Shown here: in pieces, positions 33,438-35,780 of the stretch
Layout of the letters: each line of letters starts with the position of its first letter
Position numbering within the stretch: position 1 is the first letter of the stretch
Assembly (NCBI GenBank): GCA_964565075.1
Contig: CAZMCK010000005.1
Span: 25,270 to 89,269 of the forward strand
DNA from: an uncultured Dehalococcoidaceae bacterium
GTDB taxonomy: Bacteria; Chloroflexota; Dehalococcoidia; UBA2979
DNA length: 64,000 nt
Direction: 5' to 3'
Position numbers and translations under genes: made by a program
The notes under the pieces: generated by a model
Told to the model about the DNA's origin: nothing
Database searches by the model: none
What the model saw: only the letters and a program-made list of their open reading frames with translations

Positions 33438-35780
33438 CTACTCGCGGATCGTGAACCAGTACGGCTCAGACCAGCCCGTCCAGCCCGCCGGCTGCTGCTC
33501 CGCGATGCGGATGTTGTGCCGCCCGAGCGAGAGGTTCCGCAGGCTCAGGTCATCCGTCGCGACTCCCGGACTCGCGTCGATGCTGACTAGGACATTCCCC
33601 CACTCCACATACCCGACCGACCACATACTCCAACCCCCCGAGCGTGCTACCGGGGCTGCGTGGCACGCCTCGGACGAATCCCAGCCCCCCTCGCGATAGT
33701 TGCAGAACGCGAGAATCTCAAGAGGCGCAGCGCCGATGATTGTGAACCAGTACGGCTCCGACCAACCCGTCCAGCCAGCGGGCTGCTGCTCGCTGAGCCT
33801 TATCTGGTGGCGACCCGCGCGAAGAGTCCGGAACGTGAAATCCCCCCACGCGACGGCAGGGCCGCCGTCGATACTGTAGCGGTCATTCTCCGCGTCGAAC
33901 GTCCCCCGTCGCCAGATGGATGGATAGGCCTCCGCAAGGATGCCTCGCTCGCCGGCGAGACGGCACGCCTCGCCCGACTCATGCTCGCCGCGATTGCAGA
34001 CTGCGGTGATCTCGAGCGGAGCAGCGCCGGTGATCGTAAACGCGTAGGGCTCGGACCAGCCCGTCCAGCCAGCAGCCTGCTGCTCGCTGGCCCGAATCGT
34101 GTGGAATCCCGGCGTGAGGTTGCGCAGCGTAAGGTCCCCTAGCGCAAGAGCCGGGCCGCCGTCGATGCTGTACTGGACGTTGTTCCAGTCCGCTACACCG
34201 AGCGTCCACACGACTGGGCCGTCCTCGGCGAGGATGCCCCTAGAGCCCGCCGCAAAACACTGGTCGCTCGTGTCGTAATCCGCCCAGTTGCCGTTGCATA
34301 CGGCAGGGATCTCCAGTGGCGCGGCCCCAGTGATGGTGAAGGCGGCGGCGGCGGACCAGCCCGTCCAGCCGCCCGCCCGCAGCTCGTTCGCACGGATGGT
34401 ATGCCGCCCGCGCCCGAGGTCTCGCAGGCTCAGGTAGTCACGTGCTTCGCCGCCGTCGATGCTGTAGTAGAGGTTGTCCCAGTCCCGGACGCCGCGCACC
34501 CATACCTCCGGGGTGCTGGTATCGAGTCCACCTGCTGCCGCATTTCGGCAATCGCCTGAAGCGTCCCAGTCACCGTTGCAGATCGCGGTGATCTCTAGCG
34601 CCGTCGATGTTGGCGCGGGTGCTGTAACGGGCCGCCTCGCGTAGTGCGTGCCGGTGCGCAGGCTCGGGAGTTGCGCGGTGACTGTCTCAGTGGCGATCCC
34701 GAATCCGATGCCGTCGAGATCGCGGCCTCCCAGCGACGTCGCGGCCTTGAGGACAGCAACGCCAACCACTGCACCGCAATCATCTACGATCGGTCCTCCG
34801 CTGTTCCCTGGGTTGATCTCCGCGTCGATCTGGATCATGAGCCCGTCATCTGCGAAGCCCTGGAACTGCGAGAATGGCGCGTGCTTCGAAACAACGCCGC
34901 GGGTGAGCGACGGCGTTCCGGCAACGCCCGCCGGGAAGCCTATCGCCGACACGTCAGATGCCACACTCGGACGTGCTGCCGCGAAGCCGATAGGGACTAC
35001 CGCTCCACTCGGATGTGCACTCAGCAAGGCGAGGTCGTAGCTCGGCAGGCTGCCCGTGACCTCGGCGCGCAGACGAGTTTGGCCGTGTACGAGCGAGACG
35101 GAAGTCGCGGTATCCACCACATGGTGGTTCGTGATCCACTCGCCGTTGCCGATGTAGAAGGCCGTGCCCGTGCTCGTCGCGGTCTGCACCTGGAACGTCG
35201 CAGCCACCACGCGCTCGACGTTGTCCGCGAGCGTACAGGCACCCGAGGGCGTCTGTGGCGCCGTCGGCGTCGGCATCGGTGCTGGGGTGGGCGTAGGCGT
35301 TGGAGCAGGTGTCGATCCCGGAACGCGCACCGTCAGCGGCGAACTCGCCAGCCACCGGCCGACGCGCGCGTTCGCAGGGAAGAAGCGCGACGAGGGGAGC
35401 CGCCGTTCACCCCACGACCCGTCCGCCTCGCGCTCCTGCAGCGCGAACTCTATCCGACCGTCAGCAACGAGCTGCGCCGCCACGCGCACCTCGACGCTCG
35501 CCCCGCCCGACGCGGTCTGCATGCCTTCGGGCTGCACCTCAACCGTCAGGGGTGAGCTTGCGAGCCAGCGGCCGACGCTCGCGTTCGCCGGGAAGAAGCG
35601 GCTCGACGGGAGCCGACGCTCACCCCACGATCCGCCGACGCGCTCCTGCAGCGCGAACTCCGTCCGGCCGTCGGCGAGGCGCTGCGCCGCCACGCGCACC
35701 TCGACTTCGCCCGGTGCGCTCTGGGCCGCAGCGCCCCGAATACCGAGCAGCGAGACAACGACGAGCATTGCCGCGACCAT
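33438..35780 (-). CDS. secreted trypsin-like (S1) serine protease with two N-terminal about 68-aa repeats and four C-terminal about 95-aa Cys-containing repeats
   Basis: Signal peptide MVAAMLVVVSLLGIRGAAAQS. Intact catalytic triad motifs (ITNHHVV, YDLALL, GNSGGP). The two N-terminal repeats are near-identical. The four C-terminal repeats share APLEI.AVCN..W......C......GILAE...W..G..DW.N..YSIDGG.....L.LRNL..G.H.IR..EQ.AGWTGWSEPY.FTI. Confidence 0.75.
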   Translation of the reverse strand: MVAAMLVVVSLLGIRGAAAQSAPGEVEVRVAAQRLADGRTEFALQERVGGSWGERRLPSSRFFPANASVGRWLASSPLTVEVQPEGMQTASGGASVEVRVAAQLVADGRIEFALQEREADGSWGERRLPSSRFFPANARVGRWLASSPLTVRVPGSTPAPTPTPTPAPMPTPTAPQTPSGACTLADNVERVVAATFQVQTATSTGTAFYIGNGEWITNHHVVDTATSVSLVHGQTRLRAEVTGSLPSYDLALLSAHPSGAVVPIGFAAARPSVASDVSAIGFPAGVAGTPSLTRGVVSKHAPFSQFQGFADDGLMIQIDAEINPGNSGGPIVDDCGAVVGVAVLKAATSLGGRDLDGIGFGIATETVTAQLPSLRTGTHYARRPVTAPAPTSTALEITAICNGDWDASGDCRNAAAGGLDTSTPEVWVRGVRDWDNLYYSIDGGEARDYLSLRDLGRGRHTIRANELRAGGWTGWSAAAAFTITGAAPLEIPAVCNGNWADYDTSDQCFAAGSRGILAEDGPVVWTLGVADWNNVQYSIDGGPALALGDLTLRNLTPGFHTIRASEQQAAGWTGWSEPYAFTITGAAPLEITAVCNRGEHESGEACRLAGERGILAEAYPSIWRRGTFDAENDRYSIDGGPAVAWGDFTFRTLRAGRHQIRLSEQQPAGWTGWSEPYWFTIIGAAPLEILAFCNYREGGWDSSEACHAAPVARSGGWSMWSVGYVEWGNVLVSIDASPGVATDDLSLRNLSLGRHNIRIAEQQPAGWTGWSEPYWFTIRE

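Follow-up and report, generated by a model that had tools for sequence, protein, structure and literature searches.

A candidate surface-tethered HtrA-type protease lacking a PDZ domain, from an uncultured Dehalococcoidaceae bacterium, shares its N-terminal module pair with many unrelated exported proteins

Proteases of the HtrA/DegP/DegS type (MEROPS family S1C) are exported enzymes with a chymotrypsin-fold domain that carries the motifs TNxHV, DLALL and GNSGGP. MarP (Rv3671c)-type proteins of Actinobacteria likewise hold a Trypsin_2 domain without a PDZ domain outside the cytoplasm, and MarP itself is anchored via N-terminal transmembrane helices and has no repeat modules. Among secreted proteins more generally, a terminal position, many passengers and many copies characterise modules for anchoring or sorting, among them SLH, CWB2 and the C-terminal domain of the type IX secretion system (T9SS). 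Here we analyse a protease gene on a 64,000-nucleotide stretch of contig CAZMCK010000005.1 (hereafter the window) from an uncultured Dehalococcoidaceae bacterium. The coding sequence as called spans 33438..35780 on the minus strand, as do all features of the gene given below, and encodes 780 amino acids (aa) plus a stop codon at 33438-33440; the identical 780-aa product is present in the protein collection as P0121. The reading that we favour, with moderate confidence, is that the gene encodes a PDZ-less HtrA-type (S1C) serine endopeptidase from sponge-associated Dehalococcoidia (Chloroflexota) that is exported, stabilised by disulfides and tethered to a surface. Since secreted proteases often bear binding modules, the enzyme as such is unsurprising; the value of the locus lies in the two repeats at its N-terminus (hereafter the N pair).

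The N pair consists of unit 1 (residues 25-82, 35535..35708), identified with a family profile that matches the pair at E 1.8e-60, and unit 2 (residues 95-153, 35322..35498), whose predicted position is packed against unit 1. HMMER, run exhaustively over 1.84 billion cluster representatives, returned 1,570 matches at E <= 1e-3 and 1,128 at E <= 1e-10, in proteins of about 110 to 4,152 aa. When 133 new representatives were inspected, the units occurred in twos in 115 and in fours in 11; they sat at the N-terminus in 119, mostly right behind the signal peptide, and at the extreme C-terminus in 10. Pfam searches of 69 N-pair proteins revealed a diverse set of passengers, led by RCC1-type propellers (20) and leucine-rich repeats (LRR, 18), followed by trypsin-like domains (6), CAP (3), cadherin-like domains (3), animal haem peroxidase (2) and CARDB (2). 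OpuAC, Peripla_BP_6, Big and the alpha-2-macroglobulin domains MG2 and A2M_BRD were found as single cases. Stand-alone N-pair proteins also exist, for example as a genuine 222-aa gene call. These architecture counts exclude word-index searches with 100-128-aa queries, which gave only proteins of <= 222 aa and missed the 780-aa self match.

A scan of one genome per GTDB species confirmed 207 N-pair loci. The best 80 of these 207 were all located on metagenome-assembled genomes (MAGs), assigned to Dehalococcoidia/Chloroflexi or Acidimicrobiales/Acidimicrobiia, together with one Gemmatimonadetes contig and several unclassified 'bacterium' bins. Complete chromosomes of both the Dehalococcoidia and the Acidimicrobiia group carry N-pair loci, several genomes hold at least 7-9 copies, and the N module is 50-60% identical between Dehalococcoidia and Acidimicrobiales chromosomes. 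The sources of N-pair proteins traceable so far are sponges; the SB06xx and APA MAG names, for instance, derive from Ircinia ramosa and Aplysina aerophoba (PMC11706023). Judged from sequence, the N pair is a promiscuous module on many unrelated, predicted exported proteins in symbionts of at least two phyla.

The fold of the N pair was modelled with AlphaFold2 using an alignment of 32 diverse pairs. The resulting all-beta model (pLDDT 94.6, pTM 0.86) shows a long hairpin followed by short strands in each unit, and a fixed mutual orientation of the two units is predicted. Foldseek returned nothing credible for this model in the PDB (best E 0.05, template-modelling (TM) score < 0.3) or in BFVD (best E 0.02-0.05 and TM < 0.35 for the two databases together). 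Similarly, the N-pair profile gave nothing significant against PDB sequences (best E 0.7), Pfam searches of the 32 N pairs at E<=10 gave scattered noise only, and NCBIfam had no match within residues 25-153. No domain entry was found for either the N repeat or the C-terminal repeat of the protease, and the titles and abstracts of the sponge-symbiont literature searched mention neither. A known domain as the explanation of the repeats was rejected: beyond the protease, neither single-sequence nor profile searches of Pfam, NCBIfam and PDB sequences, which took in many homologues, gave a match. We put forward, tentatively and as a possibility rather than a probability, that the N pair represents a previously undescribed fold and a new class of anchoring or targeting tag, exchanged horizontally across sponge-symbiont phyla. 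Such a tag would mark a 'symbiosis secretome' (LRR, RCC1, cadherin, CAP, peroxidase and protease proteins), and passenger cassettes swapped behind it would diversify the host-facing display.

Our analysis points to a surface anchor or targeting tag as the most likely role of the N pair. The module is terminal, is attached to unrelated secreted passengers and is present in several copies per genome, and we propose an anchoring or sorting function because this distribution matches that of SLH, CWB2 and the T9SS C-terminal domain. The N pair is also fused to solute-binding proteins, which would need to be retained at the surface of the cell itself, and these fusions favour tethering there. The N pair is basic and rich in Arg and Trp, with conserved Arg and aromatic residues. 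These residues would suit anionic glycans, and a different reading holds that the N pair is a host adhesin that binds the sponge matrix (sulfated glycans, collagen/spongin), such that the released enzyme docks on the matrix and digests host or particulate protein. The 50-60% identity between Dehalococcoidia and Acidimicrobiales suggests transfer within the habitat and a habitat-wide ligand, the module travels with 'eukaryotic-like' passengers (LRR, RCC1, cadherin and CAP), and the traced source genomes are sponge-derived. However, LRR, RCC1 and cadherin are already binding modules, and a second host binder would be less economical than an anchor; the fusions to solute-binding proteins likewise argue for the cell's own surface. 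We regard a host adhesin as less likely than the surface anchor, but as a serious competitor in view of the cross-phylum sharing within one habitat and the conserved Arg/Trp-rich surface.

Several points weigh against the surface-tethered enzyme that we favour. Anchoring by the N pair is our proposal from the analysis. The N module occurs in both Chloroflexota and Actinomycetota, whose envelopes are unlike, a point in favour of a ligand that the habitat supplies, namely the host matrix, over one in the cell wall. Solute-binding proteins account for only 2/69 passengers, and a sponge source was traced for part of the source genomes only. Additionally, HtrA-type domains are classically envelope quality-control proteases, and a housekeeping role is possible.

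If the protease is indeed tethered by its N pair, its action could be pictured as follows. After Sec export, the protein would fold with formation of its disulfides. The basic, Arg/Trp-rich N pair would hold the enzyme at a surface, most likely the bacterium's own envelope, with the sponge matrix as the alternative. A flexible Pro/Thr-rich linker (residues 154-180, 35241..35321, read from the sequence) would give the enzyme reach, and the catalytic domain would cleave extracellular proteins. Four C-terminal modules resembling immunoglobulin (Ig) and fibronectin type III (FN3) domains, located in the place of PDZ domains, might bind substrate or ligand or serve as spacers, and their number (0-6) may be tuned through gain and loss of internal units.

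Residues 181-384 (34629..35240) form a chymotrypsin-fold protease domain of the S1C (HtrA-like) type, as identified by Pfam Trypsin_2 and by alignments to Deg2 and DegS. Trypsin_2 (PF13365) matches residues 205-341 at E 5e-24 with 86.1 bits against a cut-off of 27.6, and Trypsin_2 and Trypsin are the only Pfam families matched by the 780-aa protein. Its motifs TNHHV, YDLALL and GNSGGP line up with the active-site His, Asp and Ser in Deg2 and DegS, and by this alignment the His-Asp-Ser triad H220 (35121-35123), D249 (35034-35036) and S327 (34800-34802) is intact and in canonical order. The domain contains a conserved cysteine pair, C182 and C335. In total, the protein has ten cysteines that make up five pairs, of which the protease domain holds one and the four C-terminal units one apiece, an arrangement that fits an extracytoplasmic location. 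The nearest NCBIfam and PDB-sequence relatives of the catalytic domain are HtrA, DegP, DegS and Deg2, together with HhoA. Yet TIGR02037 scored 79.5 bits against a cut-off of 416.2, and all 12 NCBIfam HtrA-type models stayed far under their cut-offs. A PDZ domain was not found with Pfam, even at E<=1, and the C-terminal 386 residues are made up of four non-PDZ units. NCBI labels family members as 'S1C family serine protease' or 'trypsin-like peptidase domain-containing protein', and nothing further.

The four C-terminal units (C units) follow one another without interruption: unit 1 spans residues 395-488 (94 aa, 34317..34598, Cys 401 and 411), unit 2 residues 489-588 (100 aa, 34017..34316, Cys 495 and 508), unit 3 residues 589-686 (98 aa, 33723..34016, Cys 595 and 606) and unit 4 residues 687-780 (94 aa, 33441..33722, Cys 693 and 706). 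The terminus of the protein coincides with the boundary of unit 4 (...FTIRE). Pairwise, the C units are 44-61% identical in aa sequence, a range that varies with aligner settings; at the DNA level they are 55-65% identical over aligned codons and 68-79% in the best-conserved ungapped segments. The two cysteines, G70 and W87 are invariant across 67 C units from the family. Searched with the family profile, each unit of the present protein gives an E value between 1e-29 and 1e-40. In a subgroup of more distant C units (P0218, P0234, P0238, P0239 and similar), the two final strands carry a second cysteine pair, seen as GC(H/Y)E... and ...EFC, which suggests an extra disulfide.

AlphaFold2 modelling of C unit 2, with an alignment of 67 diverse units, yielded a confident beta-sandwich (mean pLDDT 95.7, pTM 0.86) of six beta-strands and one short helix, and the invariant disulfide would staple this helix to strand A. 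In a Foldseek search of the PDB, the best neighbours were FN3 domains of the insulin/IGF1 receptors and sorLA, Ig-like domains and the BT4673 sensor ectodomain, with TM scores of 0.33-0.47 and zero matches at E <= 1e-3. The C-unit profile gave only sub-threshold matches to PDB sequences (E 0.08-1), in which the last two strands and GW(T/S)GWS of the C unit fall on the F-G region and the WSXWS motif of an FN3 domain from the leptin receptor. For the 67 C units, Pfam at E<=10 returned nothing consistent: fn3 (PF00041) was absent, and Big_13 (PF19077) appeared in only 2/67 units (best E 0.0095) and in 2/120 homologues among precomputed matches. NCBIfam had no match in the repeat regions, and hhalign comparisons of the C unit with 10Fn3 and with the canonical FN3 of a paralogue gave probabilities of <1%. 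Membership of the C unit in FN3 by sequence or profile is not supported, given the lack of an fn3 match and these hhalign values. We take the C unit to be a divergent beta-sandwich with a disulfide that probably belongs to the FN3/Ig fold class and is probably no new fold; it has no demonstrable membership in a catalogued family. In the data examined, it is seen almost exclusively in this protease family.

An initial sequence-only reading of the gene had held that the repeats match no domain that it recognised, such as PDZ, PKD, fibronectin or SH3, and might be novel binding modules, for example for carbohydrate or cell wall. The domain searches that it had suggested for the repeat units indeed gave no catalogued match in Pfam, NCBIfam or PDB-sequence profiles. 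The AlphaFold model of a C repeat, which it had also suggested, gave a confident beta-sandwich whose structural neighbours are weak and FN3/Ig-like; the C unit would thus belong to a known fold class and not be foreign to that of fibronectin and Ig domains. Binding appears to be the most sensible functional reading of the repeats. The same reading had described the layout of the protein largely as we find it. A signal peptide, a triad confirmed by the Trypsin_2 match and the Deg2/DegS alignment, a PT-rich linker between the N repeats and the protease, and four C-terminal repeats of about 95 aa (94-100 aa), with the two conserved cysteines in 67/67 units, were all as it described. Its motif AGWTGWSEPY.FTI, called invariant, is present in C units 2-4, but unit 1 reads GGWTGWSAAAAFTI instead. 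Its two near-identical N repeats are likewise present, but with a period of 70 aa rather than about 68; the N units are ~58 aa each. N1 and N2 share 86% aa identity, 81% nucleotide identity over aligned codons and 84-90% identity in ungapped DNA segments. A scan of the 64-kb window with the family profiles found neither the N nor the C module elsewhere in it.

The protease gene interrupts, on the opposite strand, a cluster of genes for branched-chain amino acids (window 28390-42871). The gene order is uppP (BacA), a metallo-beta-lactamase-fold gene, ilvE, bPH_5, a geranylgeranyl-reductase-like gene, the protease gene, ilvB, ilvN, ilvC, leuA and leuC. The GC content at third codon positions (GC3) of the protease gene is 0.79, about six standard deviations below the 0.947 +/- 0.027 of 22 other window genes; within the gene it is lowest in the linker (0.63) and highest in the N units (0.85-0.88). 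In the two closest syntenic genomes, L004 and L033, the ilvB protein is 93% identical and the flanks share 86-91% DNA identity, but this similarity ends at ~35972 and ~33429. Between these breakpoints, only the N-module part is alignable (76-82%). In both genomes, the place between ilvB and the reductase gene is taken by another N-module protease, a paralogue (L004:3810-5710, L033:3818-5664) with a catalytic domain that is 34% identical and with one C unit plus other C-terminal domains. By contrast, the more distant L005 (ilvB 85% identical) keeps the gene of the window type at 71% DNA identity. The gene thus behaves as an exchangeable cassette between conserved housekeeping genes, because the flanks are conserved while L004 and L033 hold a different paralogue and the more distant L005 keeps the window type. 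It was probably acquired laterally. In L033 (Dehalococcoidia chromosome OZ244720.1), the copy at 3905-5613 is split into two open reading frames by a frameshift inside N1, and is either a pseudogene or the result of a sequencing error.

These features bear on the reading that the protein is an ordinary envelope quality-control protease of the HtrA type, with the extra repeats as structural spacers. Its best sequence relatives, DegP, DegS, HhoA and Deg2, would fit such a role. However, the scores far under every equivalog cut-off, the GC3 outlier status, the 34%-identical paralogue at the same locus in close relatives, unlike a housekeeping gene, the C-repeat count that varies from 0 to 6 among homologues, and the same N module on non-protease passengers all speak against it. 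A housekeeping role is unlikely because the PDZ domain is missing, the composition is atypical and the locus turns over, and we consider this reading improbable. More improbable still is that the N pair serves as a propeptide, acting within the molecule as a chaperone or inhibitor in the manner of the alpha-lytic protease pro-region. The pair is N-terminal, beta-rich and two-lobed and lies between the signal peptide and the protease, as a propeptide would; but 63/69 surveyed N-module proteins have no protease, and the module is also found at C-termini and alone in 222-aa proteins. A propeptide role was rejected on the ground that most N-module proteins are not proteases.

The sequence-only reading had raised the worry of a collapsed or expanded repeat array in the assembly, and had taken the nucleotide similarity of the repeats as a signature of recent intragenic duplication. 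Neither concern was borne out. Gene calls on contigs of three independent Logan assemblies (SRR8304771, SRR8304783 and SRR8304785) gave exactly this 780-aa protein. These runs are among the Mix-51-derived datasets of the Autometa study, and some Mix-51-derived datasets were spiked with a metagenome of the sponge Hippospongia lachne (PMC6547426). About 30 homologues with 60-71% identity have the same layout of two N and four C units, several of them on contigs of 1.7-4.0 Mb. Misassembly of the array is very unlikely because the same product is found in three assemblies, the C units are only 55-65% identical in DNA, and homologues keep the layout.

The units also proved to be position-specific. 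In 85 members with two N units, the nearest neighbour of an N unit was the same-position unit of another protein in 153/170 cases and the sister unit in 15, and two alignment columns are diagnostic of the N1 or N2 position (R vs L, T vs M). Similarly, C units are 66-91% identical to the same-position unit in other genomes versus 44-61% to their neighbours within the protein. Homologues with 3, 5 or 6 C units have lost or gained internal unit types (for example 1-2-4 and 1-2-2-3-3-4), and C-repeat counts among homologues run from 0 to 6. Where C units share a residue, identical codons are at or under the codon-usage expectation (e.g. 24/52 vs 28.3 expected), and synonymous sites between C units are therefore saturated. 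N1 and N2 show a mild excess of identical codons (32/48 vs 24.5 expected), which is compatible with occasional gene conversion and does not indicate a young duplication. By these sequence comparisons, the N1/N2 split and the C1-C4 order are older than the divergence of the family. In view of positional orthology and saturated synonymous sites, we rejected a recent duplication or gene conversion for the C units and, for the most part, for N1/N2 as well. An assembly error, or tandem duplication in the very recent past, is exceedingly improbable as the origin of the array: nucleotide similarity between units is detectable, but the three assemblies agree, the C units have diverged to saturation at synonymous sites, and the units are positional orthologues over dozens of genomes.

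The protease looks exported through the Sec route, as judged from its signal peptide, whose extent depends on the start codon. The public gene call starts at ATG 35780, and the reading frame is open 5' beyond it as far as TTG 35903. The true start is probably GTG 35804, eight codons upstream of ATG 35780, which gives a 788-aa product that begins MDSSRRWAMVAAML...; this start is favoured because the N-termini of homologues align best there (MDSSRRWAMVAAMLVVVSLLGIRGAAA/QS). Homologue leaders are 28-29 residues long, e.g. MTDVRRGAVPVM...GVRGAAAQ, and are of the same type, ending in AAQ. In the 780-aa form, residues 1-19 read as a hydrophobic core followed by AAA/QS, and the GTG 35804 start adds a charged n-region (DSSRRW). 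The signal peptide at 35724..35804 is accordingly composed of this n-region if the GTG is used, the h-region AMVAAMLVVVSLLGI and the c-region RGAAA/QS; the hydrophobic core and the AxA cleavage site are kept with either start, ATG 35780 or GTG 35804, as read from the sequence.

A scan for promoters, terminators and RNA elements around the gene returned one promoter-like site, on the plus strand upstream of ilvB, and one terminator-like hairpin inside the protease coding sequence, at chance level. Elsewhere in the window, a c-di-AMP riboswitch (RF00379) was detected at 51523-51658 on the minus strand as a full-length match (72.8 bits vs a gathering score of 38).

The N pair is confidently foldable, is in no domain catalogue, and tags more than 1,000 exported protein clusters of uncultivated bacteria. 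If it does hold 'eukaryotic-like' proteins at the cell surface or the host matrix, it would provide a sequence marker for the host-facing secretome, and a fusion of the N pair to green fluorescent protein (N pair-GFP) would be a testable reagent for an unculturable symbiosis. Additionally, the protease family clearly illustrates how a cassette can be replaced at one fixed locus among housekeeping genes.

Compared with HtrA, DegP and DegS, the present protein has its triad aligned with H96/D126/S201 of DegS but lacks PDZ domains and carries four Ig/FN3-like modules in their place. It also carries the N-terminal paired module and the Pro/Thr linker, and it differs further in scoring far under every NCBIfam HtrA cut-off, in its variable locus and in its atypical composition. 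The NCBIfam model of MarP matches at E 2.4e-16, but with 59.8 bits against a cut-off of 250. The C unit resembles FN3 domains of the cytokine/insulin-receptor type (WSXWS) in its predicted beta-sandwich and its WSXWS-like GW(T/S)GWS; however, all its matches to FN3 are sub-threshold (E >= 5e-3, TM < 0.5), and FN3 is without the disulfide-stapled helix found in the N-terminal half of the C unit. The 'eukaryotic-like proteins' of sponge symbionts (LRR, ankyrin, FN3, cadherin) share the habitat of the N pair, and LRR, RCC1, cadherin and FN3-like domains are attached to it, although the N pair has no place among the recognised eukaryotic-like domains. Such proteins are discussed as mediators of host interaction (PMC6306507, PMC11706023). 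Finally, the N pair shares no detected sequence or structural similarity with SLH, CWB2, LysM, SH3b or the T9SS C-terminal domain. Its usage is nevertheless that of SLH, CWB2, LysM and the T9SS C-terminal domain: a short, repeated terminal module on many unrelated secreted passengers and in many copies, confined here, as far as traced and in contrast to the known anchoring modules, to sponge-associated Dehalococcoidia and Acidimicrobiia.

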